Below, in pieces: positions 35,547 to 61,828 of a DNA stretch of 64,000 nt; the first letter of the stretch is position 1; each line of letters starts with the position of its first letter. The stretch is from an uncultured delta proteobacterium. GTDB lineage: Bacteria > Myxococcota_A > Polyangia > Polyangiales > Polyangiaceae. A model generated the notes under the pieces. The model was not told where the DNA came from. It was given only the letters and a program-made list of their open reading frames with translations, and did no database searches. Position numbers and translations under genes: made by a program. Location of the stretch: assembly GCA_963696385.1 (NCBI GenBank), contig CAVOKF010000007.1, forward strand, positions 128,001 to 192,000, written 5' to 3'.

Positions 35547-37634
35547 TCACCGAGACGTGCGGAGCGGGCACACGCCCCCCGATTTGCGGTACTCGCGCTG
35601 CACGGCCGCCACAAGGTGCCCGTCGGCCATCGGCGTCCGCTCGCCGAACGCGAGCACCTGAGCGTGGAGTACCGCGTTGCGGATCTGCCCCCCGGTTAGC
35701 TGACATCGGCTGGCAACCTCCCGAAGCAGAGGCAGCGACGCGGCGTGAGCGGGCGGCAGGTGCGTCTGCCAAAGCCGAAACCGCTCGGCGACGTCCGGTG
35801 CGTGGAAGTCGACGACGACGTCCATCCGCCGTTGGAACGCGGTATCGATGTGGTCGCCGGCGTTCGTGGTGACCACGACGATTCCCTCGAACGTCTCCAG
35901 GCGCTGCAAGAGGAAGTTCGTCTCGAGGTTGGCGTAGCGGTCCGTCGAACTCTGCACCCCCGTGCGGCGCGCGAGCAGCGCGTCCCCCTCATCGAGAAGA
36001 AGCACGACGTCGAGCTCCTCGGCGAGTTCGAACACGCGCCCGAGGTTCTTCTCGGTCTCTCCGATGTATTTGTTGACGACCGACGAGACGTCGAGTCGAT
36101 AAAGATCCTTGCCGAGTGTCGAAGCGAGGATTCTGGCCGCGAACGTCTTTCCTGTGCCGCTCGGGCCCTGAAAGAGAACGCGAAGGCCGCCGCCGACCTT
36201 CGATCCGAAGGCAGCGCCGAGGTTCTGGCCGAGCTCTTCGCGAGCGCGACAGCGGACCGTAAGCTGATCGAGCTCGCCGCGCGTCTCCGCGCTGACCGAC
36301 AGGTCCCCCCAATCGCCTCCGACATCGAGCCGCGACGCCAGCGTCTCGAGCGCCTGGCGGTGCAGAGACCGGGCGGCCAAGCGGACATCCGCAACTGTGA
36401 CGGGGGGGTCCGTCACGGGGGGCGATAGGGCACCCCTCGAGCGCTCCGCCACGCCGGGAGCGGCGCCCGCCGGTCGGCGCGCCAGGAGTGCGTACGACCG
36501 AGCCATGCGGGCCACCGTCCGAAGGTTGCCGCTCGCCATTCGAAACGCCGTAGCAAGATCGTCGACCGACTCGGCCTGCGCCGGCAGCACCGCGCGCCAG
36601 TGTTCGCGCCGCTCGGCGGGGCTCGGCAGGTCCAGCGTGATCGCAATCGCTCGCTCGACGGCGGTGCCCGTCACGCCCCCCTGTCGCCCCGTCACGACGA
36701 ATATGGGACCGGCGTACGCGCCCGGTCGCTCCAGGTCCACCGACTCTCCGGGCGCGAGGTCCAAGACGACAACCGGCACCGCACCCAGCAGCGTGCAGAG
36801 CGACCCGGCGGTGCGAAGCCGCCTCTCCTCGGGCTTGCCGATCGAGTCGATCTCGAGGACCCCGGCGCAGAGCGCGCAGGCGAGGGCACCGGCGACCGTG
36901 CGTCGGCCGTTGTGTCGTGGGCCCCGGACGATGACGCCCGCGACCTCGCTCGCGGCCAGGAGCTCCGGCAAGCGTTCGATAAGCTCTCGAGCCGCGGGCG
37001 CCAGGACGAGCGCGTCGAGCGACGTGAGCGACGAGGCCGACCGGTACCGAGCCCACGGCAGCGGCGTCTCCGATGCCTCGCCGCGCATCGCGTCCCAGAT
37101 CGGCGCCGCGACTTGCAGGCCCCACTGAGCGCGCGCTGCGTCCAGGTTCGACGTCGTGACCAGCCCGAGTTCGCCGAGCCTGCGAAGGGCCGCGCGCACG
37201 CCCGGAGTTCCGCGACGGGCCGCCCAGTCGTGGAGCAGCCCCGCCGTCGGGCGCTGCTGGCCCGCGATGCCGTGGAGCGCCTCGAAGACGAATCCGAAGC
37301 GAGCGTCCTCGTCGGCGAGGCCGATCATCGCGAGCAGGACAAGGTCGTCGATCTCCAGACCCGCTGCGCGACGGAGGTTGGCGATCGGCAACGGAACAGA
37401 GGCCCACGCCTCGAAGATCGCGATCGCCGAGAGGCAGTCGTCCCGCGTCGCGAGGCCGCTCCGGGAAAGATCCGCCGCGTAGCCCGAGAGAAAGGCGAAC
37501 TGGCGCTCGACGAGATCGCGAGAGCCGATCGTCGCGTCGAGGTGCAGAAGCAGAGAGTGAACGGCCCCGAGGAAGAAGAGGCGGAAGTGCTCTTCGGGAA
37601 GGGATACGGAAGTGGGTTTAGGCAAAACGTTCAC
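35547..37634 (-). CDS. eCIS AAA+ ATPase (Afp15/Pvc15-like)
   Basis: GPSGTGKT, VVNKYIGETEKNL, LLLDEGDAL, DRYANLETNFLLQRLE; degenerate N-terminal AAA domain. Confidence 0.92.
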   Translation of the reverse strand: MNVLPKPTSVSLPEEHFRLFFLGAVHSLLLHLDATIGSRDLVERQFAFLSGYAADLSRSGLATRDDCLSAIAIFEAWASVPLPIANLRRAAGLEIDDLVLLAMIGLADEDARFGFVFEALHGIAGQQRPTAGLLHDWAARRGTPGVRAALRRLGELGLVTTSNLDAARAQWGLQVAAPIWDAMRGEASETPLPWARYRSASSLTSLDALVLAPAARELIERLPELLAASEVAGVIVRGPRHNGRRTVAGALACALCAGVLEIDSIGKPEERRLRTAGSLCTLLGAVPVVVLDLAPGESVDLERPGAYAGPIFVVTGRQGGVTGTAVERAIAITLDLPSPAERREHWRAVLPAQAESVDDLATAFRMASGNLRTVARMARSYALLARRPAGAAPGVAERSRGALSPPVTDPPVTVADVRLAARSLHRQALETLASRLDVGGDWGDLSVSAETRGELDQLTVRCRAREELGQNLGAAFGSKVGGGLRVLFQGPSGTGKTFAARILASTLGKDLYRLDVSSVVNKYIGETEKNLGRVFELAEELDVVLLLDEGDALLARRTGVQSSTDRYANLETNFLLQRLETFEGIVVVTTNAGDHIDTAFQRRMDVVVDFHAPDVAERFRLWQTHLPPAHAASLPLLREVASRCQLTGGQIRNAVLHAQVLAFGERTPMADGHLVAAVQREYRKSGGVCPLRTSR

Positions 37635-39616
37635 AGTCCAAGGTCCGTGTGAGGCAGCTTGCCGTTAAAGACCAGCGCCGCAGCCGAGACATTGGAAGTG
37701 CCGTGGAGCAGATGGCTTGTTCGCGAAAGCAACAAAGCATCCACGACAACTTCTCTCGCGCCAAGCCCATACCCGAAATGGGTAGGGCGGCCGTCGTGGG
37801 ATCGACGAGCCGATGTGTGGATCACCCTGTCGCCGTAGGTTGTCTTCATTCGATCGAGAAAGCGCCCGCAGTCAGTTGCGACGAAGACCCGAAGCTCAGG
37901 TCGCGTCGAGATCTGAGCGTCTACCAAAGCCTTGTAGCGGTCGAACGAAGGAGGTATGGCCTCTCCGATTTTGTCGGTGCCCCGGTAGTGGACTCCAATC
38001 ACCGCGCGACCCGCGAACTCGCGCGCAAAGTAGTCGTCCACCTGCGACCGCACCTCTCGGCGCGGATGAATGTAGCGCTCGACAAGGCTCGCAGAAATCT
38101 CACGTTGTCGATTGTTTATGCGCCCGCCATACCCGATGTCCTCCGAAAGGTAGTCGGCGCGCACGACCGCTCGGTCCGCTAGCTTCCGTTGCAGCGTGGG
38201 CGCGTCGAGCGCCTCCAGTGCGACGGGATCCGGATAAATGTCTTCGATGCCGAGACCAAAGACGGGGAGGAATGAATACTCCCATGCGTTTCGAGCGCCA
38301 TTTTGTCCAGCGTCGTCCCAGTAACAAACGTGTCGGTTTAGGTAAACCACCGGGATCAACCCATCGCGCTCCGCCAACTGGAGGTGGCCAAGGACCTGAA
38401 AAAACATGGAAAACATGCCGCAGCCCGGCCGAGCCGCGCTAACCAGAACGCAAGCGTGGCTATTGGCGGGACCCTCCGGATGCGGCGCTTGGCGCTCGCG
38501 GCCCGAGGACTCCCCGGCTCGTGACAGGCGCTTGGCCACCAGCATCACTTGCGTCGGAAAGGTCACCCGATCGCCTGCGGCGCCGTGCAGGGAGAACACC
38601 TCAAATGAGGTGTTGGCAGCAGTAGGCAACGGAATGATCGCTGTCCGATGTCCTAATGAAGCAAGTTGCCGGATCATAGCCTGGCCTCCGTCCCACTCGG
38701 TGCCGCACAGGACGAAGAGCGTTCCTGAGGTCCGAAACTCGACCACAACAGGCGAGACTCGCGACGCCACGACCTGCGTGAACCACTTTCCCAGTAGAGG
38801 GCCCGGGACGGCTCGGAACGGCCGAAGGGTGTTGCAGTGGGAAGAGACGCCAGGGAGCAAGCGCTCGATCAAATACCCCATGGTCTCGCTAAAGGTCACC
38901 TCAGCGCAGGCATCGGCACCGAGCTCGGACGTAGGACGTGGGGGAGAAGTCGCGATATAGTCCTGAATGAAACGCGCTTCGACCTCGCGTACGGGTCCGG
39001 TCAATCGCCGGCCCTCGTCATGCCGCACGCCGCTTAGGTGCAGGTGGTGCATTCGCACCGATCGCGAGGGGTTCTCCAGCGCTAGGCCAGCAGCACCGGC
39101 CTCGTAAGCGAGGCGGTTCTCACAACCCGGCAAGCCGAGATGCCAATCGCTCGGGAAGCTTGGAAGCGGCGTCTGGAAGATCCAAGCGTCCTGGCTCCAT
39201 GGGTGCTCGAAGAAGACCGCGCTCCCGTCGGACTGAACATCCCAGCGTGAAAGGCACAGAAGCTTCCCCCCGAGGTTGAACCCCTCGAGCAACGCAAGCG
39301 TGTGATCGAAGTAGATGTCATTGTTGGCAAGGATCACTCTTCGGTCCGGAAGCCACCGGTTCGCGTGCGCGAAAAGATCGTGATAGGTGAGCCGCCGTCC
39401 ATGGTGCACGAGCCGTGCTTTGGGGTCGCGGAGCACCGGGTAGGCCTTCACGTCGACAGGCTCCTCTAGAAACACGTGCACCTCTGCGATGTGCTCGGTC
39501 GCAAGGTTGCGCCGCAGGCAATCCACGAACTCCTCCGTACGTGCGGCGGATCGGTCCGGATAGAAACCAACCAGCAGGGCAAACTCAAAAAAGGGCATGC
39601 GTTGCCCACTTCCCAT
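37631..39616 (-). CDS. Fused glycosyltransferase: GT-A-like N-terminal domain plus NodZ/GT23-like fucosyltransferase
   Basis: ILANNDIYFD, SRWD, SQDAWIF; C-terminal IGVHYRGTDK, VFVATD, VDALLLSR...SNVS. Confidence 0.82.
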   Translation of the reverse strand: MGSGQRMPFFEFALLVGFYPDRSAARTEEFVDCLRRNLATEHIAEVHVFLEEPVDVKAYPVLRDPKARLVHHGRRLTYHDLFAHANRWLPDRRVILANNDIYFDHTLALLEGFNLGGKLLCLSRWDVQSDGSAVFFEHPWSQDAWIFQTPLPSFPSDWHLGLPGCENRLAYEAGAAGLALENPSRSVRMHHLHLSGVRHDEGRRLTGPVREVEARFIQDYIATSPPRPTSELGADACAEVTFSETMGYLIERLLPGVSSHCNTLRPFRAVPGPLLGKWFTQVVASRVSPVVVEFRTSGTLFVLCGTEWDGGQAMIRQLASLGHRTAIIPLPTAANTSFEVFSLHGAAGDRVTFPTQVMLVAKRLSRAGESSGRERQAPHPEGPANSHACVLVSAARPGCGMFSMFFQVLGHLQLAERDGLIPVVYLNRHVCYWDDAGQNGARNAWEYSFLPVFGLGIEDIYPDPVALEALDAPTLQRKLADRAVVRADYLSEDIGYGGRINNRQREISASLVERYIHPRREVRSQVDDYFAREFAGRAVIGVHYRGTDKIGEAIPPSFDRYKALVDAQISTRPELRVFVATDCGRFLDRMKTTYGDRVIHTSARRSHDGRPTHFGYGLGAREVVVDALLLSRTSHLLHGTSNVSAAALVFNGKLPHTDLGL

Positions 39617-39663
39617 TCCTCGGAGCTCTCCGCATTGTCATCCCGTCTCCGGCACCTTGTTTC

Positions 39664-42600
39664 TCATTTCTTGACTTCGTACGTCTCGAGAGCTTCGTCG
39701 ATTTGGTTGTTTACTGCTTTCTTACTAAACAAAGGCGTTAGAGCGCCTGTCTTCGTATCTATCTCATCTGCGCTGCAGACCATCGCAGAGGGGACGAAAG
39801 CCTCCTGATCGATGATCTTATCGACAATGTCCGCCTTTTTTCTTATTCCCGGATTGAGTGAGTTTTTTGCGTATGCGGCTGTTCGCGCTCTGTCATAACG
39901 AGGCACTACTTCATATCTAATGACCTTTTTCTCATCAAGGACTTTTCTTTTGACCAGCTGTTCCACCTGTATCAAGTGTTGAGCGTTCCCGCTTCGGGAA
40001 AGCGGTGTAAGATTGTTCCACGTATTTCCAGGACCATGCAGTAAACGATTGAGAAGATGACCCAAAACATAGTAACTTCCGTCCTTGTTTCTGCGCAGAT
40101 TCAGAATGTCGAAATTCTCGTTGCTCACGGAGGGGGTACTCCCAGGTGGTCCTTTCTTGGTAAGCCTGAGAACCAACATCGACGTTGCGTAGCCGTGGCT
40201 AGTCAGGCCGCCAAACTGCGGCGCAGTCGACTCGAGGAGCCCACCGAAGATGGAGGGCAGGATACCAGTCAGCACCTCGAGCTTCGTTTGAATTGCCGCC
40301 TTGATCGTCGCCGCTTCATCGTCTTTCAGCGATTTGGACGCTTGCGATCGAATCAGCTTCTCGAGTTCCGTAACGACTTGCAGTGCGCGGACGATCGCCG
40401 GTGAAGACGGTTGCCCCTCGAGCATGGCTCGGAGGCTTCCCGGCGCCTTGCTTGCCATCATGATCTGCGCGCTGCCCGGAGCTCCAGCGACGGAGAGCTC
40501 ATGGCTTTCGTCGTCGATCGTAAGCGACTTGCGGGCGCGCCACCACGCTGCCACCGCCCCTGCTGTAGAGTGTCCCAGGTTTAGGAAGAACGCGTTCGCC
40601 TTTCCAACAATCCACTGGACGGCCGTTTCAAGCGCCTTTTCAACTCGTTCCTGCAGCGCCTTGATCTTCGCGACGATGAAGTCCGTCACGCCCCCGAGGC
40701 CCGCGATCCGCGCTAGGAAGCTGATCACCAGCGTCAGCAGCCCGCTCAGCGTTGACTCCACTCGCGCGGCGGCCGCGCCAATCGCACCCGAGGCAATGGC
40801 GGCGATCGAGTCGATGAACGCAGCCACGACGGCGGCGATCTGCTTCAGGCGCTCGACGAAGAACATGACCGTGTTGTAAATGCCGATGATCGCTTGGATG
40901 AAGGCGCCCACGGGGCTTAGGAGCGAGAGGAGCTTGGTGACGGCCGCCTTCACGACCTTCTCTTCGACGAATCCGAGGATCGCCGAGAGGACCATGTCCT
41001 TCAGGTCGCCGAGCTTGTCCTTGATGACCTCCCACGCCGCCGCGGGCCCGCCCTTGACCAGCGCAACGACGACGTCGAAGCCCGTCTCCATGGCCTTCAT
41101 GATCGTCTCGCCGGTCGGGCCGAGCGCCTTGACGATCATCGCGCGAATCTTGGTCCAGGTGATCCCGAGTACGCTGAGGACGAACTTGCCGATCTCGGCC
41201 AGCGACAGCGCCTGCGGAATGTAGATGCCCGCGCCGCTTAGGGCGCCGGTGAGCCACCCGACGAGCGACGTCTTGAGGTGCGTTCCAAAGTTGGCCGCGA
41301 ACTGCTGGAAGCCGAGTTTGGCGGCGGCCACCAGGTGGCCAGCAAAGGCGATCGGATTCTGGAGGATGGTGTGGAGCGCCCCTCCCGCCTTCTTCAAGTA
41401 AGGCATCACCGCCGGGGCGACGACGTCGAAGATGATCTCCAGGAGGTTCCAGATCGTCCCGCCCGCCCAGGTAATGAACCGCGCGGCAAAGCCGCCGAAC
41501 ACCGCGCCGACCTTGGCGAACGCCCGCGGCACCAGGACGAGGTCGGCGATCTCCAGTGACTTCAAAGCCTGCAGGAACAGAGTCGGCACTTGTCGCACGA
41601 AGCCCAAGAGGTTGTTGAGTGCCGTTTGGAACCAGGCCCAGGCGCGCGCGACGGCGTGGCCCTTCTGGATGTTCTGCCAGATCTCTTCCTGGCCGATCAT
41701 CTTCATGAAGCCGCCGATTAATGTCTCGGCGTTGCGCGGGACCGCCTCCCCCGTGATCGGATTCTTCCCCAGTACGGCGCAGAGCAGATCCCACCCCGCA
41801 CTCTTCGACGCGAGTTCCGCCAAAGGTTGCAGGATGGCATCCTTGACGAAGTGAAGGATGCCGTCGACGAGCCCCTTGCCGAACGCGATGATCTGGTCGA
41901 TCGGCGTCGTGAAGATCGCGACGGCGCGGTTCCAGACGCCCTCCATGTTGAAGACGTCGGACAAGTGGAGCGACTCGATGAAGTCGCTCAACGCTTTCTT
42001 GATGGCACTCCAACTGAGGCCGAGCGAATCGATCTGGCTGCTGATCCAGGTTCCGACCTTGTCGAGGATGCCGTAGGCGTCGAGCGCTTGGGTGATGAGG
42101 GCGCCGCCGGGGAGAAGCTCGATGACGGCGCGCAGGACGTTCGCGGCGGAGCGATCGACCTGGCGAAGATTGATGGGGTTTTTGCCCAGGACGACGGTGA
42201 GCATCCGGAAGCCGGGGACGTCGTTGGCCTTGTTGGCGATCCAGTCGAGGGCATCGTCCTTGCCGAAGCGCTGAATGCCGACGTCGGTTGTGCGCTGGCA
42301 GACGGTGAAGGGGCCCCCCTGCAGCGCGGCGGCGGCGGCTTGACGGGCCTCGCGCTCGTAATGGTCGGCGGCGTCGCGCGAGAGCCTCTGGACGGCGTGA
42401 ACGGCGCCGCGCTGCTGGATGACGTGGGCGACCTCGTGAGCCAAAAGAGCGACGTCGCTGGGGCTCTCGCCGGGACCGAGAAAGATGTGGCGGCCGTGGG
42501 CAAAGGCGCGGGCGCCGACGGCGGTCGCGGCCTTGTGCGCTTTGGCATCGGAGCTCACACGCACGTCGCCGAGTGTGACGCCGAAGGTCGCCTCCAGACG

Positions 42601-42810
42601 CGCCCGGACGGCGGGAGCGAGGGGCTCGCCTCCGCCGGCCCGGTCCGAGATCGCACCGAGAGCCGGCGCCGATGCGGATCGGTGCGCAGGAGGCCCTGCG
42701 CTGAGCATCAACGCGTCCGGCGAGGTGCGCACCGGCCGAGACGTTGCCGGCACGGTTGCGGGCGTGGCGGCGAGCGACGTCAGCGCGGAATGGGCGAGCG
42801 CCGCGGCCAT
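39664..42810 (-). CDS. DUF4157 (eCIS core) effector with C-terminal DNA/RNA non-specific (His-Me) endonuclease domain
   Basis: GEPL..VRARLE..FG, ARAFAHG..IFLG, LLAHEVAHVIQQ; C-terminal YVLGHLLN..LHGPG....NLTPL...GN; AT-rich 3' end. Confidence 0.88.
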   Translation of the reverse strand: MAAALAHSALTSLAATPATVPATSRPVRTSPDALMLSAGPPAHRSASAPALGAISDRAGGGEPLAPAVRARLEATFGVTLGDVRVSSDAKAHKAATAVGARAFAHGRHIFLGPGESPSDVALLAHEVAHVIQQRGAVHAVQRLSRDAADHYEREARQAAAAALQGGPFTVCQRTTDVGIQRFGKDDALDWIANKANDVPGFRMLTVVLGKNPINLRQVDRSAANVLRAVIELLPGGALITQALDAYGILDKVGTWISSQIDSLGLSWSAIKKALSDFIESLHLSDVFNMEGVWNRAVAIFTTPIDQIIAFGKGLVDGILHFVKDAILQPLAELASKSAGWDLLCAVLGKNPITGEAVPRNAETLIGGFMKMIGQEEIWQNIQKGHAVARAWAWFQTALNNLLGFVRQVPTLFLQALKSLEIADLVLVPRAFAKVGAVFGGFAARFITWAGGTIWNLLEIIFDVVAPAVMPYLKKAGGALHTILQNPIAFAGHLVAAAKLGFQQFAANFGTHLKTSLVGWLTGALSGAGIYIPQALSLAEIGKFVLSVLGITWTKIRAMIVKALGPTGETIMKAMETGFDVVVALVKGGPAAAWEVIKDKLGDLKDMVLSAILGFVEEKVVKAAVTKLLSLLSPVGAFIQAIIGIYNTVMFFVERLKQIAAVVAAFIDSIAAIASGAIGAAAARVESTLSGLLTLVISFLARIAGLGGVTDFIVAKIKALQERVEKALETAVQWIVGKANAFFLNLGHSTAGAVAAWWRARKSLTIDDESHELSVAGAPGSAQIMMASKAPGSLRAMLEGQPSSPAIVRALQVVTELEKLIRSQASKSLKDDEAATIKAAIQTKLEVLTGILPSIFGGLLESTAPQFGGLTSHGYATSMLVLRLTKKGPPGSTPSVSNENFDILNLRRNKDGSYYVLGHLLNRLLHGPGNTWNNLTPLSRSGNAQHLIQVEQLVKRKVLDEKKVIRYEVVPRYDRARTAAYAKNSLNPGIRKKADIVDKIIDQEAFVPSAMVCSADEIDTKTGALTPLFSKKAVNNQIDEALETYEVKK

Positions 42811-42822
42811 CGTCGTCCCCGC

Positions 42823-45180
42823 TCAAGCCCCGTTTCCGAGGATGGTACGCCTCCAGGCCGGGTAGACGTTCTTGCCCGCGCCGTTGAAGTGAAGCACCTT
42901 CGCCGGACGGCCGCGCCACGTCGCGCCCTGCCGCCCTCCGAATGCACATGAGATCGCCGGGTCGATGTGAAGTTGCGCGTTGTACGCGCTGTCGAGGGGC
43001 GTGATCGCGCGGGCGCGCGCCAGAGCGATGTTTAGGGCGGCCTTCGTTCGCCACCAGACGTCGCGCCGCGCCGTGACCCAGTCGCGCACGAAAGGCGCGT
43101 CCCGGAGTGTCTCGTCCACCGAGGCGAGCGCCTCGAAGTCCGCGACGAACACGCCGTCGTTCACGACGGTCGGCTCGTCGTCCGTGCCCGGATACGGGGC
43201 GAGCAGCCGATCGGTCTCCGCGGCTGTGGCGAGATAAACGGTTCGCAATCCCTGCCGCAAGTTCGTCACGGGAGTCCGCGTTGCCTCGGGCCCGATGAGC
43301 ACCTGCCCCGCCGGCAGCGCCGCGTGCATCTCGAAGAGCGGAGCGAGCGTATCGAGGACGAGCAAGTCGGCGTCCATACACAGGTATTGCTTCGCTTCGA
43401 CGGCGTGCGTAATCGAGTAAAGCGCGCTCTTGAGCCATGGCCCCGCGCCGCGCACGCTGCCGCACCGCAAGACGGCCGCGCGGTGCCGCGTGGCGATCGC
43501 CTCGCAGCGCGGTGAATGGCCCTCGACGAACACGACCCGCGGCACCTCGGCGATGCCGCCGAAGCGATCGAGCGACGTCAGCGCTCCGTCGAGGTACTCG
43601 ACGCACGACTCGCCGCCGACGAGAGCCACGCACCGCTCGAACCTCAAGGGCGGCGCCGGGCGCACGAACCCCGTGCTGCCCAGGCAATCGATGAGGGACT
43701 GCTCGCGCATGGGCGCTGCTGTGGCAACGGACAAGGCTTGGACGGGCGCGGCAGGGGCCGCCGAAGCCTCGGCAAGGATTGCTCGGTAACGCTGAATCAT
43801 GTCCCCCGGCATGGCCGCGGGTGGCTCGATCCGGGACCACCCGTCGCCCAGAAAAGACCCCGTTTCGAACCGCCACGCGTTCCGACCGTGGCGTATGTAT
43901 ACGAACGTCCCCTCATTGCGGAGCCGTTCGAGGCGTGCCCCGGATCGGAGCATCCCTGTCAACAGCATGGCGTCTTCGGCGATGTTCACGTCCAGGTAGC
44001 GAAGCCCGGCCCCCAGGAGCGACTTGCGATAGGCGAGAGTGCCTCCGTGCACGTTCCCGACAAACATCCGCCTGTGAAGATCGGCGCTGATGGTCCAGAA
44101 ACTCCCGTCCGTCAGGTTCCAGACGTAGCGGTTCTCCATGCCGGTCACGTCCGCACGCCCCGACGCGATGGGCTCGACTTGGACGCGGAGCCGCTCGGAG
44201 CCGAACCAGTCGTCGTCGTCCCAGTGGACGACGACGACGCCACGGGCCTCGGAGCAAGCCAGGTTACGCTTCGTGCCGATCGTAGCTCCTCGCGGCGCGC
44301 GGAAGTAGCGAATGCGCGCGTCGCCCCGGCAGAGATCCTCGACCGCGTCATCTCCGCTGTCGACGACGACGAGCTCTGCGGGCGCGTAATCCTGCGCCTG
44401 AAAATGCTCCACCGCGAGGCTCACATACGCACGGCGGTTGGCCGTCGGCATGATGCAGCTCGCCAAGGGCCGTCCGGGCTGCGGCGCGCTCCGAACCTCG
44501 GGACGAGCGAAATCCGCCCAGTCTGCACCGAGGATCTCGCGGATCCTCTCGATCGGCAGCGGGCGCCACGCCGGACCGCTCGCCACCTTGGGCGTGACGT
44601 TCGCGGGGTGAATACGACCGACGTGAAAGTTTCCGTCGGGCAGCACCACGATGTGTTGCCGGGATCGCGACGCGGCGAACCGGGTATCTTCGCCCACGTC
44701 ACAGTCCGGGAAGGGATCCTTCGCCCACGCCGCACGCCGGTACATCATCGAGCTGCCCCCGACCCAGGGGGCCCCGCCCATGTACACGAACTCCCAGGCG
44801 CGCCCCTCCTCGGGGTTGCAGAAGAGAAGTCGCGTGATCCCACAGAGGTCCGCCGTGCTCGCGAGCAACGCTTGCGCCTGGACTTGGAGCCGATCGGGCG
44901 CGTGCCAGTCGTCGTCGTCCCAGTGTGCGACGATCTCGCCGCGCGCGCGCTCGCACGCGAGGTTGCGCTTCTTTCCGATGCTGGCGCGAGTGTCGAGACG
45001 CACGTAGACGATCTGCGGATCGTCCGGAATAAGGTCTCGCACGCAATCCGAGCCGTCGTCGACGACGATGAGCTCCTTGTCCGGCCAGCCCTGCCGACGA
45101 AAGTGATCGATCGCCGTCGGGACAAACCGGCGGCGATTGAACGTCGGCATGATGCAGGAGACAACGGAGGCAGAATCCAT
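42823..45180 (-). CDS. Three-domain glycosyltransferase (GT2-GT2-GT8-like)
   Basis: Two copies of SCIMPT.NRR / ELxVVD / IG.KRNLAC / HWDDDDW; third domain YLCMDADLLVL, VNDGVF, YN, VLHFNG.GK. Confidence 0.9.
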   Translation of the reverse strand: MDSASVVSCIMPTFNRRRFVPTAIDHFRRQGWPDKELIVVDDGSDCVRDLIPDDPQIVYVRLDTRASIGKKRNLACERARGEIVAHWDDDDWHAPDRLQVQAQALLASTADLCGITRLLFCNPEEGRAWEFVYMGGAPWVGGSSMMYRRAAWAKDPFPDCDVGEDTRFAASRSRQHIVVLPDGNFHVGRIHPANVTPKVASGPAWRPLPIERIREILGADWADFARPEVRSAPQPGRPLASCIMPTANRRAYVSLAVEHFQAQDYAPAELVVVDSGDDAVEDLCRGDARIRYFRAPRGATIGTKRNLACSEARGVVVVHWDDDDWFGSERLRVQVEPIASGRADVTGMENRYVWNLTDGSFWTISADLHRRMFVGNVHGGTLAYRKSLLGAGLRYLDVNIAEDAMLLTGMLRSGARLERLRNEGTFVYIRHGRNAWRFETGSFLGDGWSRIEPPAAMPGDMIQRYRAILAEASAAPAAPVQALSVATAAPMREQSLIDCLGSTGFVRPAPPLRFERCVALVGGESCVEYLDGALTSLDRFGGIAEVPRVVFVEGHSPRCEAIATRHRAAVLRCGSVRGAGPWLKSALYSITHAVEAKQYLCMDADLLVLDTLAPLFEMHAALPAGQVLIGPEATRTPVTNLRQGLRTVYLATAAETDRLLAPYPGTDDEPTVVNDGVFVADFEALASVDETLRDAPFVRDWVTARRDVWWRTKAALNIALARARAITPLDSAYNAQLHIDPAISCAFGGRQGATWRGRPAKVLHFNGAGKNVYPAWRRTILGNGA

Positions 45181-45195
45181 GCGCTTGCTCCCGGG

Positions 45196-47565
45196 TCAGC
45201 GCGAGCACCCGCGCGCCTTGCGGAGGGCCAAGAGCAATGAGAGCGCCACGAGACCGGCCCCCGCCGCCAACGTGCTCACTGCGCCACTGCGCCCAGGAAC
45301 ATCGCAGTTGCAATTGGTGGGTTTGGGCGCAGACACGACCTGGTCCTGCGCGGTCACTTGTGTTTGGACAGACACCGCGCCGTTGCCCGGGATGGTTACC
45401 TGGTACGAAGCGAAATCAGCCTGGGCGCCATTAGCCTGTTTCGGAATCGAGTAAGCCGCCGCAGAAATCGGTTTGAGCTGAGCCGGCTGGATGCTGACTG
45501 GCGCAACCACAAAGTCTCTGGGGGCTTCCGTTGTGACTGGCGCAGCCCCGGCGGGTAGGCCCGCTATCGCCACGTTCTGCCCAAGCACGGGCAGGCTGGC
45601 GATGGTGGTCACTCCCGGCGTGATGCCGGTCTTCTGCCAGTTGACCGCGATAGTCTCGGTCGGCGACGACGGCGCGGTAATGATTGCGTGGCGGGCGATG
45701 AGATAATAATCCCCCCACGGGACGTAAACTTCTTTCTTGACGCCGTGTAACGGCACGGTTTTCCCGGTATCCAACCATCCGACGACATGCGTCTTCATTG
45801 TCTCGTATGGGTTCGCAGCACCCGGCTGCACGCTGGTCACGCGCACGATTTGCGGCGGCGGCTGCAGATATTGAGGCAGGAAGGCCGTGTCGAGTGCCGC
45901 AGGGAAGGTTTGCGTGAAGCCTGTCAGCTCGAACACGTGATTTCCGGCACCAAGCCCGTTCGCGCTCACGATCGCGGAGTAAGTCGCACTGGACGCGGCG
46001 GTCCACCACGCGTTGACTTGAGCGCTCTGCGCAATCACCGGCACCGCTCCGCTGTCGCCGAAAATGTCCGCCCCCAGACAATAATGGCCTACGCTCGCTC
46101 CGGCGGCGATATCGTTGCAGGCCGTTTGCTCGGACAACTCGAAGTTGTACGCCGCCGTCGCGCTGCTGGGGCTTGCGGCGCTCCCTGCGTTCAGCAATAG
46201 CGGCGGGGAAGGATTCTGATTTGCAGAGTTTGAAACCGGGGCGTTGCTTGGGCTCGGCAGTACCCCGGTGCCACTCTGCAATTGCGCCCACTCGTTGCCG
46301 ACGATGCCGAAATTCGAGATCCGAAAACGCACGCTGACCCCCGGCACCGATGAGCTATATGTATTGTGAACCGTGGCCTGAAAGGTGTTGACGGCACTCG
46401 GATCGGTAACGGTTGTGGGAAGCGACGAGCATGCACTCCCAGTAGGAAACTTCGGGTACAATAACGGTGCCCCGTTCTGCCCGACCACATTGTTGATCAC
46501 GATGTCGTTTTGCGTGATGTAGAGCCCCCCTCCGCACGTGGTGCTGAGGTTCACAGCCGTGCCGATGTTGAGAGTCCCCCAGGATGAACCTGTCGATGGA
46601 AATATTTGTTCGATGTTCGTCGCGCTGTTACTCCCGAGAATTGGATCACTCTGTGGCCATTCGAGCTCCGTCACGCCAGTGCCACTGCCCGGGGGCGCTT
46701 GGTCCTGCCCCAAATCTGTCATAATACCAAAATAGAGCTGCAAATTTCCGGACGCCGGGGCGGTCCAGCTCGGTGTGCCCGATCCATTGATCGGAATGGC
46801 CATTTCGAACGACCATAGATATGTGCCGATCGCGTACGCGAAGCCTCCACCGTTGCTTGATGGATTGGTTGATGAATTGAAGACCCATGACGTACTCGGA
46901 ATCGCGGAGTTGATGCTCCAAGTGCCAGGGTAACTATTGAAAGCTGCTGAGGTGAAAGTCGCCGTCTGATACGAAGCATATTGCATATTCTGGCAGTTCA
47001 CGCCGGAGGGACATTGATTGCCACTTAGCGTTCCTTGGCCAATCGGATTTTGAAGAAACAGCGCATTTGATGGCGGTGCGGCAGATTGCGCTTGACCCTG
47101 AACGAACGGCTGAATAACGAACGCGAGGCCCGACGGGCTTCCGGAATTGCTTACTCCGATCACAATTGTATTGTATAGAGCGGGCGGTAGCCCTGCCGAT
47201 GAGACAATTCCGCCGACGTAAAGAATTGTCGAGGACGGGTTGGTGCCGAGAAGGAGCCAACCCAAGGGTGTCGTCATTCCGCCAGCGCCCAGCGGAATGC
47301 GCGTCCCTGTACCCCACCCGGGGTCGGGTACATTTGTCGCATCGTAGGGGGCAGCGCTCGGAAGACCGCTACCCTGTATAGTGGCGGCGACCCATCCGAA
47401 TGCGGGATCCGGGTCGATGACCCCGTCGATGAAAGGCGGCTGTTGGTGGACAGTTTGAGCGACCGGTGCGCACGTCGTCTGTGCGCGCGCCAAGGCGGGA
47501 GTAAGGACCACGCCGAGACTCAGGCAAAATGCTAACAGTCGCAACTGCATGTTATTGGACTGCAT
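45196..47565 (-). CDS. Secreted surface protein with MYXO-CTERM-like tail and possible CBM9/DOMON-like N-terminal domain
   Basis: Signal peptide (ARA-QT), PFIDGVID, WSFEMAIP; tail CNCDVPG + TM + RKAR; lower GC. Confidence 0.75.
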   Translation of the reverse strand: MQSNNMQLRLLAFCLSLGVVLTPALARAQTTCAPVAQTVHQQPPFIDGVIDPDPAFGWVAATIQGSGLPSAAPYDATNVPDPGWGTGTRIPLGAGGMTTPLGWLLLGTNPSSTILYVGGIVSSAGLPPALYNTIVIGVSNSGSPSGLAFVIQPFVQGQAQSAAPPSNALFLQNPIGQGTLSGNQCPSGVNCQNMQYASYQTATFTSAAFNSYPGTWSINSAIPSTSWVFNSSTNPSSNGGGFAYAIGTYLWSFEMAIPINGSGTPSWTAPASGNLQLYFGIMTDLGQDQAPPGSGTGVTELEWPQSDPILGSNSATNIEQIFPSTGSSWGTLNIGTAVNLSTTCGGGLYITQNDIVINNVVGQNGAPLLYPKFPTGSACSSLPTTVTDPSAVNTFQATVHNTYSSSVPGVSVRFRISNFGIVGNEWAQLQSGTGVLPSPSNAPVSNSANQNPSPPLLLNAGSAASPSSATAAYNFELSEQTACNDIAAGASVGHYCLGADIFGDSGAVPVIAQSAQVNAWWTAASSATYSAIVSANGLGAGNHVFELTGFTQTFPAALDTAFLPQYLQPPPQIVRVTSVQPGAANPYETMKTHVVGWLDTGKTVPLHGVKKEVYVPWGDYYLIARHAIITAPSSPTETIAVNWQKTGITPGVTTIASLPVLGQNVAIAGLPAGAAPVTTEAPRDFVVAPVSIQPAQLKPISAAAYSIPKQANGAQADFASYQVTIPGNGAVSVQTQVTAQDQVVSAPKPTNCNCDVPGRSGAVSTLAAGAGLVALSLLLALRKARGCSR

Positions 47566-47616: not shown

Positions 47617-48834
47617 CTAGGGCGCGATGTTCACGGTGATGGACACCGGAGGATCGCCTGCGTCGTCCGTGATCTGCACGTTCAACGTGCTTGGTCCGGC
47701 GCCTGACTGCGCCTGCACGCGGACCGCTTGGGTTAGGGGACCATAGCCCGATCCGCTTGCGGGGAGATTGGCTGAAGTGACCGACTGCGGAGCCAGGGCG
47801 TAGCTCGTTGCGCCTGAAGCGGCCGCGGGAAAAGTGTAGTTACTGCTGGCAAGCACGAATGTGGTCGTGTAGGTCGCCGCCTTGAAGAACGTCACGTCGA
47901 GAGTGACAATCGTTCCGCCTGCAGCCGCAGATATATCGACGGCGCCGGTCGAATCGACCTGGGTGGCGAGTGATACGACGGCGACGGCCAGGGGGGGGAT
48001 GGATTGGCCAATGGTGATCGGCAGTATCAAAGGGGGGGCCGGCGTGACCGTCCCGCCCGGTGTCACCTCTTGAGCATTCAGCGTGAGTGTGGCTGTACCG
48101 CCCGACACGTTCGGGGGAGTCACCGTCACCGTCAGAGATGTCATCGATCCGGAAGTGTTTGACCCGGGAGCGGGCACGGCAAAAGTTAACTGGCTTCCGC
48201 CCGAGACCTGCTGGCCGCCTTGGATGGCGGCGGTCCATGCGGAGTTCGACATCGTCGCGGTCACCAGGTAATTCCCCGCCTCAAACACGTGAGCCACCAT
48301 TGTGAATCCGAACGCGTAGGGAACCGCGGGATGAATGAGATCGTCCGATGGAGTCGCAGCGGGCGGCCGGACGGAATAACTCAGGTTCAGGGAGCCGCTC
48401 GGATAGACTACTTGGGGGGCGACCGTGAGAAGCCAGACCGCACTGCTTCCAGCCGCATTCGTAATCGTCATCAGCATGGCCGTTCCGGTCGCGGAGAGCT
48501 GCACGCTGGGCGGAAACTGCGGGATCGCGAAGATCAACGTCCCAGGTCCGCTGCCCGGCTCGAAGACACCGACCTGGTAGCCGCCGATGGTCACAGTGTT
48601 GGCGGACGCCGGTGTGGTGAAATTCGCACCGGTCACCGTCACCGTGTCGAGAATATTAAGCAATCCGGTAGGCGTCACGGAATTGATGACGAGCTGACTC
48701 GCCGCGGCTGCGCTCTGACCCGCAAGCAGGGTCACCCTTCGGTCGAGGTCATTGATCGCCGCTACCAGCCTGTCGATGTACGACGCCTGAATGAGATCTC
48801 CGGGGTTCACATTCGCAATGTTGTAGGTTCCCAT
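47617..48834 (-). CDS. IPT/TIG (Ig-like) domain protein
   Basis: VNPGDLIQA + short coiled coil; INSVTP...TVTVTGANF....NTVTIGG. Confidence 0.75.
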   Translation of the reverse strand: MGTYNIANVNPGDLIQASYIDRLVAAINDLDRRVTLLAGQSAAAASQLVINSVTPTGLLNILDTVTVTGANFTTPASANTVTIGGYQVGVFEPGSGPGTLIFAIPQFPPSVQLSATGTAMLMTITNAAGSSAVWLLTVAPQVVYPSGSLNLSYSVRPPAATPSDDLIHPAVPYAFGFTMVAHVFEAGNYLVTATMSNSAWTAAIQGGQQVSGGSQLTFAVPAPGSNTSGSMTSLTVTVTPPNVSGGTATLTLNAQEVTPGGTVTPAPPLILPITIGQSIPPLAVAVVSLATQVDSTGAVDISAAAGGTIVTLDVTFFKAATYTTTFVLASSNYTFPAAASGATSYALAPQSVTSANLPASGSGYGPLTQAVRVQAQSGAGPSTLNVQITDDAGDPPVSITVNIAP

Positions 48835-48872: not shown

Positions 48873-51155
48873 TCATTCGAAATGAAAGGCCAAAAATCGC
48901 CCCGCCGCGGGCACCCACCCGGGGTCGCGATCGAGGCCGGCGAGGCGCACCTCGATCGGCAGATCGGCTAGCGCCATGTGGACATCCACGTGCGTGTCCG
49001 TCGTGCGGACCCGTGCCGGGAGGCGCAAGAGCAGGCGGGCGCTCGCATCCGGGTCGCTCGCGCCGAGGGCCCTGTGCACGCGCGCTCGAAGAAAGCCCGC
49101 GAGGGAGTCCAACCAGCCGGTCCCTTCGGGGCTCCCGGCCCCTGCCTCCAACACGTCCGCTGCGCCGTAAGGCGCGAGCTCGCGTTCCCGCTGAGCGGCG
49201 ATGTCCCCTTCGCGCGCCACATCGACCGCGATGAACCCCACGGGATGCAGGATCCGCAAGCGCCCGTCCGTCGCATGCCACGTCCACCCATGGCGGTCCG
49301 GAAAGGGCTTGAGCCATGCCGGGTTCACCCGCCACGCATCGGGCCACGCTTCCCTTGCCTCTTGGGGACCGGCCAGCTCGTCGAGCAGGCCCCAGATGGC
49401 GTCGGCGGCATCGGGCTCGTCACCGAGGAGCCTACGCGCAAGCTCTGCGAGGACCCTCCAGGGCGACGCGCTCAAGGTGCGAGACCGCGGACGGGTGAAG
49501 TCGCCGTAGATCTCGAGGACCAGCAGCGCGTTGATCAGAAAGAGGACGCCGCCATGACGTGTCGAGATCCAGCGATCGAGCGCCGGGACGCCCCCGGCGT
49601 GCTCTCGCGCGGCGGGCGCCGTCTGGACCCCGGCGGAAGGGGACGGGGCGCCGACCGGCGGCACGCCGGGGCGAACGGCCGGCGGCGCGATCGATCGATC
49701 CACGTCCGCCGGGGTCGCCGTGCGATGGAGCGTCGCCGGGACGTCGCGTCCGCGATCCGAAGGCCAAGCGACTGGATGTTGAGCCTCCGCCGGATCGCCT
49801 CGAGCGTCCCGGACTTGCGTCACGGGCCCCGGGGTCGTGACCGTCGTGGGGGATTCCGCGGCGGAGGCCGCCGCCGGGGCGCCTGCGGCGTGCCCAGCCT
49901 CGGTAGGCCCACCCTCGGTCGGTCCGACCTCGGTCGCGAGAACCGCCGTTCGGGTGGCCGCGGAAGATGGATCCGTCCGTTCTGGACTGCGCGACGGGGG
50001 CGCAGCCGGATCGCGGGCCACGTGGACGACGGGCACGTCGGAGGCGGCGTCGTTCGAATCACGCCCGTCTTGTGCCGCTTGCGAAGGGTGTCGGACTGGC
50101 TGGGCCGTTCCCTGGGTCCGTGCGACGGCCCCATGTGCCAGGTCACCGATTGGGATCGACGGCTCCATCCGGTCTCGCGCGTGCGAAGCTCTCTTCGCCG
50201 ATGCAGCGACGGATGACCCGGCGACGGCGTCTTCGCCTCGCCCGACGGATCCCGCGGGGCCATCGAGCTCCGTCCGGACCGCCGAAAGCGCTTCGGGTCC
50301 GCTCGCGGCCCATGCCTGGATCGCCGCGACGACGTCGCGATCGCGCGCAACCGAGGGGGCCCGGGCGAGAGCGAGGCTCAGGACGACCAGCGCGCGCGCC
50401 GGCGCGTGCAGGTCCGCGCTTGCGGCCTCGGGCGCCCAGCGGGCCCATTTCGCTCGCGCCGCCGATCGATTCGCGTCTCTCTCGGCGCGCGATGGCGTCG
50501 TCTCGAGGGGCGCCGCGCCGGTTGACTCGCGTGGGGCCAGATGGATCCCGAACGACTCCGCGACGCTCGCGACGAGATCGCGCGCCTCTACCTCGTCGAG
50601 CGCGGCGGCAAACGCCACAAGCGCGCCGCGATCGGCGAGCCGACGCGCTGCCGCGGGCACGTAGCGCGGCTCGAGTCTCCATTGCGCGGGCGCGACACGG
50701 ATCGTGGCCGCGGGCCATCGGACCAGGTGGCGCCACCACCAGAGGGCGCCGATCTCCCCTCGCGTCCAGTCCCTTGCCAGGCAAGCGAGAAGCTCGGATC
50801 GGTCGTGAAAGATCACGGCCGTCGCGCCCGCGGGCACGCTCCCCTCGAGGGGCCGCGCCGCGGACCGCGCCTCGCGCTCGAGCGCCCGCGCAAGCGCCGC
50901 TTGCCACGCGCTCGACACCCCGGCCTGCCGGTCGAGCCGAAGCGCCTCCGGCAGCGGGTCACGCATCGATCGGATGCAAAGGATGGCGGTGGGCGGTAGA
51001 CCCGCGACGTGAAGCGCCTCACCGGACAGCACGCTCTCGAGCCGCGCCCGCGCGGTGTTCGCGTCGAGGCGACTCGCCGATCGGACGCGCAGCCGCCCGA
51101 CGATCGATCGATCGTCGAGTGCCCCCACGGGGGTGGCTGCTGACCTGCCGTTCAT
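48873..51155 (-). CDS. Putative eCIS tape-measure-like protein
   Basis: Long Ala/Pro-rich middle; C-terminal GGVLFL...HVDVHM....IEVRLAGLDRDPGWVP..GR...FHFE; operon position. Confidence 0.65.
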   Translation of the reverse strand: MNGRSAATPVGALDDRSIVGRLRVRSASRLDANTARARLESVLSGEALHVAGLPPTAILCIRSMRDPLPEALRLDRQAGVSSAWQAALARALEREARSAARPLEGSVPAGATAVIFHDRSELLACLARDWTRGEIGALWWWRHLVRWPAATIRVAPAQWRLEPRYVPAAARRLADRGALVAFAAALDEVEARDLVASVAESFGIHLAPRESTGAAPLETTPSRAERDANRSAARAKWARWAPEAASADLHAPARALVVLSLALARAPSVARDRDVVAAIQAWAASGPEALSAVRTELDGPAGSVGRGEDAVAGSSVAASAKRASHARDRMEPSIPIGDLAHGAVARTQGTAQPVRHPSQAAQDGRDSNDAASDVPVVHVARDPAAPPSRSPERTDPSSAATRTAVLATEVGPTEGGPTEAGHAAGAPAAASAAESPTTVTTPGPVTQVRDARGDPAEAQHPVAWPSDRGRDVPATLHRTATPADVDRSIAPPAVRPGVPPVGAPSPSAGVQTAPAAREHAGGVPALDRWISTRHGGVLFLINALLVLEIYGDFTRPRSRTLSASPWRVLAELARRLLGDEPDAADAIWGLLDELAGPQEAREAWPDAWRVNPAWLKPFPDRHGWTWHATDGRLRILHPVGFIAVDVAREGDIAAQRERELAPYGAADVLEAGAGSPEGTGWLDSLAGFLRARVHRALGASDPDASARLLLRLPARVRTTDTHVDVHMALADLPIEVRLAGLDRDPGWVPAAGRFLAFHFE

Positions 51156-58981: not shown

Positions 58982-59371
58982 TCAGGAAAGCGTGACGCTC
59001 AAGCCGATGGTCTGCTGGGTCTGCGTGGCCACCAGCGTGTACGTGACGGTCGCGATGGCGCTCTGCAGATCGTTCGGATCCTGGTTGACGCTCACCGACT
59101 GCACGGCGATGCGCGGCTCCCACTGCGTGAGCGCCTTGGTGATGAGGCTCTGGATGAGCGTGCGCGTGGCGGCCGTGTTCGGCTCGAAGAGGATCGACCG
59201 CAGTCCGCCGCCGAAGGCGGGCAGCATGACCCGCTCGCCCGGTTCGGTCATCAGGATGACCATGATGGCCTCGCGGATGTTCTTTTCTCCCGCCGACCAT
59301 GCGATCTGCCCGTTGGGGCCGACGCGGAACGGGAACGACACGCCGCGACCGAGGACGGTTCCTGCATCCAT
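58982..59371 (-). CDS. GPW/gp25 family baseplate protein
   Basis: LGRGVSFPF, IREAI..IL.TEPGERVM.P.FG, WEPRI. Confidence 0.95.
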   Translation of the reverse strand: MDAGTVLGRGVSFPFRVGPNGQIAWSAGEKNIREAIMVILMTEPGERVMLPAFGGGLRSILFEPNTAATRTLIQSLITKALTQWEPRIAVQSVSVNQDPNDLQSAIATVTYTLVATQTQQTIGLSVTLS

Positions 59372-61090: not shown

Positions 61091-61806
61091 AGGAGGTTTC
61101 CCAACCCCGGCGTGTACGACCCGCCGACCACCGACGGCGTGATGAGCGTGACGTTGCCGTTGACCGCGCCGCTGAACGTCGACATCGCAGCGTTGTGGCT
61201 AATCGCTGTGGCCGAAAGCTCGATTTGGCTCGCCTGGATCGTGACGGTGCCGCTCGAGGTGATCGTGACGCCCGACGGACCCGTCTCGACCGTGTTGCCG
61301 TTGCTGTCTTCGATCGTGATGGTTGCGGCCCCGTCTTGCAGCGTGATCTGCTGACCGCCCGGCGTCTGGACGATCAGCGCCTCGCTGCCGGTTGTGTCGT
61401 CGAGCGTGATCTTCACGCCGTTTCGGGAGCAGAAAAGCTTGGTGTTGTTGCTCCCGGCCGAGTCCATCGACGCCGGCGGGGCGTCCTGCCCGTTCCAGAG
61501 GCCTCCGATCACGTAGGGCCTGCGCGGGTCGCCGGCTTCGAACGCCACGAGCACTTCATCGTTCACGTCCGGGACGAAGAAGCTGCCGCGGTTGTTTCCG
61601 CCCATCATCGTGGCCAGACGGGCCCAGGTCTCGTAGCGCGCACCGCTCGAATCGGGCGACCACGGCAGCGCGACCTTCACGCGCGCCTGCCCGTCGGGAT
61701 CCACAATGTGGGTCACCTGCGCCGGGAACACGCCGAAAAACCGTCCCCCGAGGCCGTGTTCCGAGCGATCCCCCAGGATCGTTTCGACCAGCGACTTCTC
61801 GATCAT
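61087..61806 (-). CDS. Baseplate assembly protein V / gp5-like spike
   Basis: DPDGQARVKV..PW, WARL, GSFFVPDVNDEVLVAFE.GD...PYVIG.LWN; beta-helix repeats. Confidence 0.93.
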   Translation of the reverse strand: MIEKSLVETILGDRSEHGLGGRFFGVFPAQVTHIVDPDGQARVKVALPWSPDSSGARYETWARLATMMGGNNRGSFFVPDVNDEVLVAFEAGDPRRPYVIGGLWNGQDAPPASMDSAGSNNTKLFCSRNGVKITLDDTTGSEALIVQTPGGQQITLQDGAATITIEDSNGNTVETGPSGVTITSSGTVTIQASQIELSATAISHNAAMSTFSGAVNGNVTLITPSVVGGSYTPGLGNLL

Positions 61807-61828
61807 CGCGAGGCGCCTTTCGCCGTCT

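Follow-up and report, generated by a model that had tools for sequence, protein, structure and literature searches.

A Modular Glycosyltransferase Cassette and a Candidate Ser-Pro-Pro Acceptor Motif in Extracellular Contractile Injection Systems

Introduction

The question raised by this locus is why an operon that encodes an extracellular contractile injection system (eCIS) should contain glycosyltransferase (GT) genes. The locus lies in a window of 64,000 nucleotides from an uncultured delta proteobacterium (contig CAVOKF010000007.1, positions 128,001 to 192,000; G000:C7:128001-192000), the term window denoting this whole stretch, which holds the bulk of a minus-strand eCIS operon; the named close homologues of the window genes are those of Polyangia-type myxobacteria. 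GT enzymes and a Ser-Pro-Pro (SPP) tag on the fibres of the particle co-occur in many bacteria, which suggests a self-made sugar coat. The feature, a form of eCIS whose operon includes a modular cassette for glycosylation and whose fibres bear a candidate acceptor motif, is real and conserved, and apparently unreported.

Glycosyltransferase Genes A and B

Two GT genes, GT A and GT B, flank the effector gene in the 3′ part of the operon:

42823..45180, minus strand: GT A, 785 aa, with a GT2 domain (residues 2–225), a second GT2 domain (235–471) and a GT8-like domain (496–785)
39664..42810, minus strand: DUF4157 (eCIS_core) effector with a C-terminal non-specific nuclease-like tip and no SPP
37631..39616, minus strand: GT B, 655–661 aa, with a GT-A fold (8–221), a carbohydrate-binding-like β-sandwich (236–367) and a NodZ/FUT8-like domain (386–661)
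35547..37634, minus strand: AAA ATPase of the eCIS, the last gene of the operon (Pfam and homology)

The arrangement given in a preliminary description of this DNA, two GT genes with five GT domains flanking the DUF4157 gene (39664-42810) within an eCIS operon, is confirmed by open reading frames, Pfam profiles and folds, and the coordinates bear out its gaps of 15, 12 and 47 bp and the 4-bp overlap with the ATPase gene; if GT B is read from its second Met, as in a 655-aa database record, the last gap is 65 bp, not 47. The domain labels stood in part: by profile, the two GT2 stretches exceed the cut-off, whereas GT8 and NodZ/GT23 fall below theirs and are supported by fold. The β-sandwich of GT B (236–367) had been overlooked.

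The GT2 identity of GT A comes from two Pfam PF00535 stretches (142 bits, E 2e-41) and from fold comparison (Z about 19–21). Residues 2–225, which carry HWDDDDW, are the core GT2 domain of the cassette, and the acidic metal-binding motif HWDDDD is invariant in 19 homologues. In the predicted model, the third domain matches the LgtC fold (Z 18.8, rmsd 3.4, 229 aligned residues) as well as GlyE (Z 17.5) and glycogenin (Z 17.2), and the GT8 motifs, DxD and a late His, are conserved as D-A-D and VLH. This domain misses the GT8 Pfam cut-off (14.8 vs 24.3 bits, E 0.022) and, taken alone, gives zero sequence matches in the PDB; GT8-like is a label by predicted fold alone.

The N-terminal domain of GT B is predicted, with moderate model confidence, to have a GT-A fold (Z 8.3–8.4), and the middle β-sandwich resembles the C-terminal domains of GH2/GH138 enzymes (Z 12.6). 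The C-terminal domain is, by its predicted model, a NodZ/FUT8-like fucosyltransferase of GT-B fold (Z 18.0/17.7; profile E 1e-8 to NodZ), with an HxR motif, VHYRGTDK, that is invariant across 23 homologues. The GT23 Pfam cut-offs are missed (20.4 vs 28.3 and 22.3 vs 27.6 bits), and FUT1 and POFUT folds also match (Z 15–17), which leaves room for other linkages and donors. The host genome encodes Gmd above its cut-off, which makes a GDP-fucose-type donor plausible. In both predicted models the first strand of the GT fold begins at residue 6–7 and would leave no space for a signal peptide, in agreement with the earlier statement that neither GT has one.

Linkage and Co-descent of the Cassette with eCIS

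A scan for GT A relatives with one genome per species returned 140 relatives, the best 80 of the 140 giving 79 loci. On the basis of markers within the DNA examined, eCIS genes are present in 56 of the 79 loci, in 10 phyla, and in 46 of the 54 loci of at least 15 kb; the possibility left open in the preliminary description, that GT homologues occur mostly outside eCIS loci, is not borne out by these long loci. In the usual arrangement the fibre gene comes first, then the genes for the 760-aa protein, the ATPase, the DUF4157 effector and a small immunity protein, and then the GT, which is usually the last gene of the operon. In a second group of loci the GT follows DUF6519 (eBAP5) fibres. Baseplate matches were obtained in 47 of 50 genomes (44 above the cut-off), these 50 having been picked from the 79 for long contigs and being mostly eCIS-marked already. 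DUF4157 and GT A relatives are likewise encoded in the two metagenome loci that match GT B best.

A reverse test started from the fibre profile, required a visible 3′ end and left out the centre genomes. The cassette is present in 12 of 16 close systems and absent in four, a ratio that is no frequency estimate because all 12 belong to the Acidobacteriota samples and three of the four negatives are one sphingomonad clade; the further possibility that related eCIS lack GTs is nevertheless contradicted by these 12. In 21 loci of more distant systems no GT was seen with our own queries and a partial Pfam scan. Compared with plasmids, the fibre gave one weak match only. As separate observations, a contig filed as viral in IMG/VR (L109/L239) is an eCIS locus with a GT cassette, and in Sorangium cellulosum So ce26 (L022:13565-20947), whose genome has no eCIS baseplate match, a GT relative lies between a polyketide synthase gene and a Tc-toxin-like (SpvB/TcdB/RHS) gene.

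Distances of the ATPase and of the core GT2 domain are correlated in the 41 loci with both genes (Spearman/Mantel rho 0.75, Mantel p 0.001), in part through shared host ancestry, and the two trees have clades in common, including a nine-member alphaproteobacterial clade. Tree congruence, raised earlier as a check on the GTs and tested here with the eCIS ATPase, is thus largely present. The partner domains vary by lineage: GT-A with a methyltransferase, GT9-GT4-methyltransferase, methyltransferase-GT2, GT32, GT25, or NPCBM-GT8-like. Across cassettes the partner families are GT4, GT9, GT25, GT32, methyltransferases, NPCBM and UDP-GlcNAc 2-epimerase, a set that is a kit to build and cap a glycan; the fucosyltransferase domain is rare, being present in only two of the profiled loci. 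Cassettes without the core GT2 (L195–L198) occupy the same slot, and a slot that stays constant while the enzymes for building and capping are exchanged has, we infer, the look of a diversifying glycan. Separately, in the system with the longest SPP run (nine), a GT4-GT2-TPR gene (L190:2240-4381; G943) is inserted between two fibre genes.

The SPP Motif on Structural Proteins

The motif was first noticed by eye in structural proteins of the window, and was for that reason then tested in other systems. In the operon it is carried by the following products:

52522..53883, minus strand: tail fibre, putatively of eBAP3 type, four SPP, the main candidate acceptor
53491..53535, minus strand: first SPP loop of this fibre, residues 117–131, with three SPP
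53185..53193, minus strand: second loop of this fibre, with SPP at residue 231
53893..56658, minus strand: Tail_P2_I / CIS12-like baseplate adaptor, four SPP (Pfam)
59375..61090, minus strand: conserved 571-aa protein of the subtype in the spike–gp25 interval, four SPP
51166..52503, minus strand: second CIS13-like fibre/anchor protein, one SPP
G000:C7:191996-198947, just past the window: two sheaths (three SPP and one SPP), alongside two gp19 tubes and Pvc16_N

The eBAP3 label of the fibre comes from its position after Tail_P2_I and a weak similarity to the tCIS crown (7b5h, E 2.7e-4); position, length and this match are in keeping with the eBAP3 traits, which are an N-terminal anchor of about 200 aa, a gene downstream of Tail_P2_I and a crown-like fold. 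The 14 structural open reading frames, 6,519 residues in all, contain 17 SPP, a frequency 7 times that of the genome (25 times for GSPP), and eCIS proteins are three of the five most SPP-rich among 4,869 crudely called host genes.

The same motif follows the cassette in other genomes. Within the first 380 residues, the 49 eBAP3 fibres of GT-positive systems (a class that includes five broken loci with the GT on another contig) have a mean of 3.1 SPP, with at least two in 37/49 and a maximum of nine in one, whereas the seven close GT-negative systems (three of them loci ended by a contig end) have 1, 0, 1, 0, 0, 0 and 2, thus at least two in 1/7, and 23 distant fibre proteins have one SPP in total (at least two in 0/23). 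This count left out L011, which duplicates L245, and the fragments L250 and L254; L238 is without an assigned GT status. In eBAP5 systems, fibre and adaptor together contain 34 SPP in nine GT-positive loci (6.8 expected from composition) and two in nine loci without a GT profile match within up to 20 kb (4.0 expected; p 0.0009). Among all tripeptides, SPP ranks first in the comparison of GT-positive with GT-negative systems in both fibre families (1/6,090 and 1/4,059), TPP shows no enrichment, and the residue that precedes SPP is mostly G, S, A or T.

A set of 120 fibre homologues contains 310 SPP (26 expected), clustered in two regions, the count being biased by a query that favours SPP-bearing matches. 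Gap-rich alignment columns hold 99% of these 310 serines vs 44% of other residues, which places SPP in loops that tolerate expansion. Three sphingomonad systems without the cassette have 0 SPP and are nested among relatives with three to five, and the clearest event is one sphingomonad clade without cassette and without motif. In truncated loci with at least two SPP, a cassette-type GT occurs elsewhere in the genome in 5/6, and in those with fewer SPP in 0/2, a prediction that was not logged beforehand and a threshold that was set afterwards.

SPP repeats are also found away from eCIS. Only some of the non-eCIS loci were checked, and in five without eCIS markers (L004, L045 and the related L051, L065 and L067) unrelated proteins encoded just before the GT carry SPP repeats; L005, likewise a non-eCIS GT locus, has none. 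A membrane protein with four SPP (L004:5886-7547) and a 1081-aa protein of no Pfam family with six (L045:5392-8637), encoded directly upstream of the GT, are possible non-eCIS substrates. The other three loci (L051, L065:4308-12838 and L067:4326-12184) contain a sphingomonad five-gene module (two unknown proteins, one tail-collar protein, one protein of 460 aa, and the GT) in which three genes bear SPP, with no sheath or baseplate nearby; G349 has a separate eBAP5 eCIS without GT and without SPP. A role of SPP as a phosphorylation or hydroxylation site was considered and is disfavoured, at least for enzymes encoded nearby, as no recurring kinase or prolyl hydroxylase was found among the Pfam-scanned neighbouring genes.

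Proposed Mechanism and Its Alternatives

On the evidence of gene content and motif distribution, the cassette probably acts in the cytoplasm and O-glycosylates the SPP serines that fibre and baseplate proteins carry, with a glycan that varies by lineage. The GT genes would form a dedicated cytoplasmic protein O-glycosylation cassette of lineage-II-type eCIS, in which one enzyme would add the first sugar to the Ser of [G/S/A/T]-S-P-P in exposed, length-variable fibre loops; in the host genome the motif is also borne by the sheaths, the baseplate adaptor and the 571-aa protein, which may be modified likewise. Glycosylation would take place before or during particle assembly, and the remaining GT domains would draw on nucleotide sugars of the host to lengthen the chain, the terminal sugar here probably being fucose or another GDP-sugar; in other lineages methyltransferases would cap the chain. 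The particle would exit the cell glycosylated, and swapped extending enzymes would yield lineage-specific glycans, most likely serving either to protect the base of the fibre against proteases or capture, or to adjust binding and self-recognition. The earlier proposal that the GTs build a glycan on the particle thereby gains support from linkage, congruence and a candidate acceptor, with the cassette being accessory and the fucosyltransferase rare.

A wider proposal is tentative. The cassettes might represent an undescribed kind of sequon-directed cytoplasmic O-glycosylation, in which [G/S/A/T]-S-P-P tags inserted by slippage into the loops of unrelated proteins receive a priming sugar, which interchangeable modules of GT and methyltransferase type then extend, in at least two fibre families and 10 phyla; strain-specific glycan "serotypes" would then set shielding, kin recognition or target range.

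Several points weigh against glycosylation of the particle. The data establish the genes with their folds, the linkage and shared descent with eCIS, the enrichment and loop position of the motif and the Gmd gene of the host, whereas the glycan, the role of SPP as its acceptor, the priming domain, the sugars and their purpose are deduced. The kin are related and the independent contrasts few, so that the p-values overstate the association: in eBAP3 there are four contrasts, two of them in the same direction (sign test p 0.5), and in eBAP5 two to four on the tree. SPP is absent from 9/49 eBAP3 fibres of GT-positive systems, and 3/9 GT-positive eBAP5 loci have 0–1 SPP; conversely, G1252 has two SPP and no cassette GT was found there. 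A Pyrinomonadaceae clade keeps a four-domain enzyme, yet the corresponding loops read Leu-Pro-Pro (LPP); in a basal grade SPP is scarce whether a GT is present or absent, some of its members having Ser-Leu-Pro (SLP) repeats. No single GT domain matches the motif, because the core GT2 occurs in SPP-poor systems and is absent from L195–L198, whose fibres have three to five SPP, and a co-occurrence analysis of domains did not single out a priming enzyme. No SPP repeats were found in phage structural neighbours of GT relatives. The cassette is, moreover, rare in the host phylum: among 301 genomes, 129 have a baseplate above the cut-off, seven the fibre type and three a strong core-GT2 match, two of the three on contigs other than that of the listed baseplate. 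It is an optional, accessory trait, and most eCIS of the host phylum are without it. As an observation on the fibres themselves, SLP repeats or LPP stand in place of SPP in L163, L248 and L249 and in L153–L161, which possibly represent alternative tags or loss of the acceptor.

Of the readings that compete with modification of fibre and baseplate, two are unlikely and about equally so. The first holds that other operon products (cargo, chaperones or the membrane-anchored protein at 45196-47565) are the main substrates and that SPP is a general tag. The SPP repeats in non-structural proteins beside the same GT (L004, L045) and the Ser/Thr-rich exported protein encoded 15 bp upstream of GT A are consistent with it; that exported protein, however, contains a single SPP and lacks homologues in the loci compared, three GT-negative systems have c6, the gene that recurs in this slot, and the effector in the window has no SPP.

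The second unlikely reading is that the cassette alters a surface glycan of the producer (lipopolysaccharide, capsule or S-layer) against binding by kin, as in phage serotype conversion, the SPP loops being proline-rich linkers or docking sites that came with the clade. GT2, GT4, GT8, GT9, GT25 and methyltransferases are typical of surface-glycan synthesis, an eCIS-linked GT of Geobacter is classed under exopolysaccharide in the available text of PMC10599522, some GT-positive clades lack SPP, and the independent contrasts are not significant. Against this, the cassette genes scanned include no flippase, polymerase, initiating transferase or membrane segment, and the Ser-specific enrichment in two fibre families and the SPP in unrelated GT neighbours would be left unexplained.

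Injection of the GTs as cargo that glycosylates targets in the victim, in the manner of an Afp18-type toxin, had been the alternative in the preliminary description and is now disfavoured as very improbable. The genes do lie in the 3′ effector region beside the DUF4157 gene, a typical cargo site according to the accessible passages of PMC8213781, and an eCIS-associated glycosylating toxin is known (PMC10598620, accessible text). But DUF4157 is present in 0/132 glyco proteins, the leader is at most seven residues in 42/48, multi-enzyme chains with methyltransferases and an epimerase fit biosynthesis rather than cargo, and the core domain co-descends with the machine, contrary to variable toxin tips. 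Hitch-hiking of GT genes functionally unconnected to the eCIS is scarcely tenable and already largely refuted, for although GT2 is a common family, with an overall depletion in eCIS operons (odds ratio 0.28; PMC8213781, passages searched), and 8/54 long loci miss eCIS markers, it is contradicted by the fixed position in 10 phyla, the tree congruence, the different GT families in the same slot and the covariation with SPP.

The Operon and the Genes Around the Cassette

The remaining features of the operon within the window are as follows:

45196..47565, minus strand: 789-aa Ser/Thr-rich protein with apparent signal peptide and C-terminal membrane anchor, one SPP (read from sequence)
47617..48834, minus strand: IPT/TIG-domain protein, recurring in the subtype (Pfam)
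48873..51155, minus strand: "hyp760", conserved subtype protein preceding the ATPase (at most 10 kb away in 37/79 GT loci)
56725..58974, minus strand: Baseplate J with an apparent break near the 3′ end (Pfam)
58982..59371, minus strand: gp25 wedge (Pfam)
61087..61887, minus strand: spike OB-fold protein (Pfam)
61829..62893, minus strand: VgrG/gp27-like hub, about 355 aa, the listed reading frame starting too early
63106..63996, minus strand: CIS_tube protein (Pfam)

From its upstream end the operon reads sheath, tube, sheath and tube (beyond the window), CIS_tube, VgrG-like hub and spike; then the 571-aa protein, gp25, Baseplate J, the Tail_P2_I adaptor, two CIS13-like proteins and the 760-aa protein; and then the IPT/TIG protein, the exported protein of 789 aa, GT A, the DUF4157-nuclease, GT B and, last, the AAA ATPase. 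This is a near-complete eCIS operon. It has sheath and tube genes (Phage_sheath_1, two gp19 tubes and CIS_tube, the second sheath by homology only), a VgrG-like spike with gp25 and Baseplate J, and an AAA ATPase with DUF4157 and the Pvc16_N terminator, the last at C7:198486 on the opposite strand, divergently upstream of the operon. PF05488 (PAAR) has no match in the host genome, which is 96% complete, divergent PAAR-like genes not having been sought; no capsid, portal or terminase was found among the operon genes scanned, a search that was not extended genome-wide. The particle could work inside the cell or membrane-bound instead of being released.

Decay of the locus was considered and rejected. 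Two apparent frameshifts, in baseplate J and in the second sheath, are read as assembly errors because short-read contigs have single-base differences at both (in two to three of four runs of one study, which may be the source sample itself). An IS66 element (TnpB and transposase, 32933-35010) lies directly downstream of the ATPase gene. In the 760-aa protein (48873-51155) the C-terminal LDRDPGW motif is conserved, whereas the middle part is variable and of low complexity; the protein may be tape-measure-like.

The effector matches eCIS_core (E 4e-22) and, exactly at the cut-off, Endonuclease_NS_2 (27 bits). The region of its toxin tip (39664-41000) has a G+C content of 0.56–0.60 vs about 0.66, as if exchanged recently, and no immunity gene follows (39616-39664), though many relatives have one there. 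The idea that the GT is itself the immunity protein was rejected, since relatives encode a distinct immunity protein, GAD-like/Tdi1, in the interval from effector to GT.

The 789-aa gene (45196-47565) lies inside the range of the preliminary description and was not described there. Its product reads as an exported, membrane-anchored protein, whose C-terminal anchor we take to be MYXO-CTERM-like, and it has no homologue in the loci collected for comparison. In relatives this slot often holds another surface-type protein, in one case with an outer-membrane barrel (L049:2-1660), and the 789-aa protein might act as a tether at the surface or as a receptor decoy. In GT-bearing eCIS operons a RimK-like ATP-grasp gene is found repeatedly (L054:7386, L063:7426, L194:5472) and represents a second possible modification of the particle.

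Significance and Comparison with Known Systems

If the fibres are glycosylated, the specificity and survival of eCIS would rest on the sequence of the fibre and also on a post-translational coat, which would go unseen in structures of particles expressed in a heterologous host. The finding names serines and genes, and harmless carriers in culture exist (Caulobacter sp. Root655, L050; Sphingomonas naasensis, L073; Nitrosospira multiformis, L015), so that a precise test is possible. It points to a new protein O-glycosyltransferase with a portable four-residue tag, of use in bacterial glycoengineering, and to a possible function for the widespread orphan multi-domain GTs of soil bacteria, with a tie to phage virion glycosylation.

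Dedicated bacterial O-glycosylation islands include those for flagellin and the clusters of serine-rich-repeat adhesins with GT8 enzymes such as GlyE, and plant extensin is glycosylated at Ser-(Pro)n. The cassette resembles the islands in co-encoding a GT chain that would act on the Ser of a neighbour, and its GT8-like domain matches the GlyE fold (Z 17.5). It differs from the islands and from extensin in that no GtfA/B, Maf or prolyl hydroxylase appeared in the Pfam scans and in that the substrate would be an injection particle.

The window agrees with eBAP3/Tail_P2_I and eBAP5/DUF6519 systems as described in the accessible parts of PMC12923769, and with lineage II in those of PMC6899500, in core genes, their order and a fibre after Tail_P2_I; a GT cassette and proline-rich acceptor loops are unmentioned there under the terms searched. 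GTs have been listed in eCIS operons before. In the searched passages of the eCIStem paper (PMC8213781), GT2 genes of about 720–760 aa occur in Caulobacter Root655, Nocardioides, Phenylobacterium, Pedobacter, Algoriphagus and Arcticibacter and a GT4 in Geobacter; GT2 is scored there as depleted (14 counts, odds ratio 0.28) and NodZ has 0, and these passages, some supplements being outside the search, list the GTs with no discussion. The available text of PMC10599522 reports that in Geobacter sulfurreducens (GSU0973-0992) the GT GSU0991 is upregulated along with the genes for sheath, tube, spike and baseplate (log2FC 2.9 and 3.2). Like the GTs of the window, GSU0991 lies inside an eCIS operon; unlike them, it is of the GT4 family and of another subtype, and it is read by those authors as exopolysaccharide synthesis.

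A term search of the accessible text of PMC8213781, PMC11297309, PMC6899500, PMC12210884, PMC12923769 and PMC10598620 gave no GT cassette or glycosylated particle, and the parts available of PMC11566945 and of the ixotrophy preprint mention glycans only on the S-layer and grappling hooks. No glycosylated contractile injection system was found in the literature searched, whose coverage ended short of subscription journals and bioRxiv supplements.

The nearest parallel is in phages. Mycobacteriophages Che8, Corndog and Myrna glycosylate capsid and tail-tube proteins with their own GTs (Freeman et al. 2023, as cited in the accessible passages of PMC12363180 and PMC11256854). Distant relatives of the window GT domains also occur in phage, after a head-tail adaptor (L114), in a portal–major capsid interval (L115) and near virion genes (L104); as a side observation, five viral contigs carry relatives of the GT domains (L111, L112, L114, L115, L104), three of them in virion modules, and are candidates for glycosylated phages. 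As in the mycobacteriophage case, as far as those passages describe it, the GTs of the eCIS are encoded by the element itself, are predicted to be cytoplasmic and accompany a phage-derived particle. Unlike the mycobacteriophages, whose Che8 enzymes were not directly compared, this is a chromosomal, headless injection system, with candidate acceptor loops bearing SPP on fibre and baseplate and with a cassette that is modular across 10 phyla.

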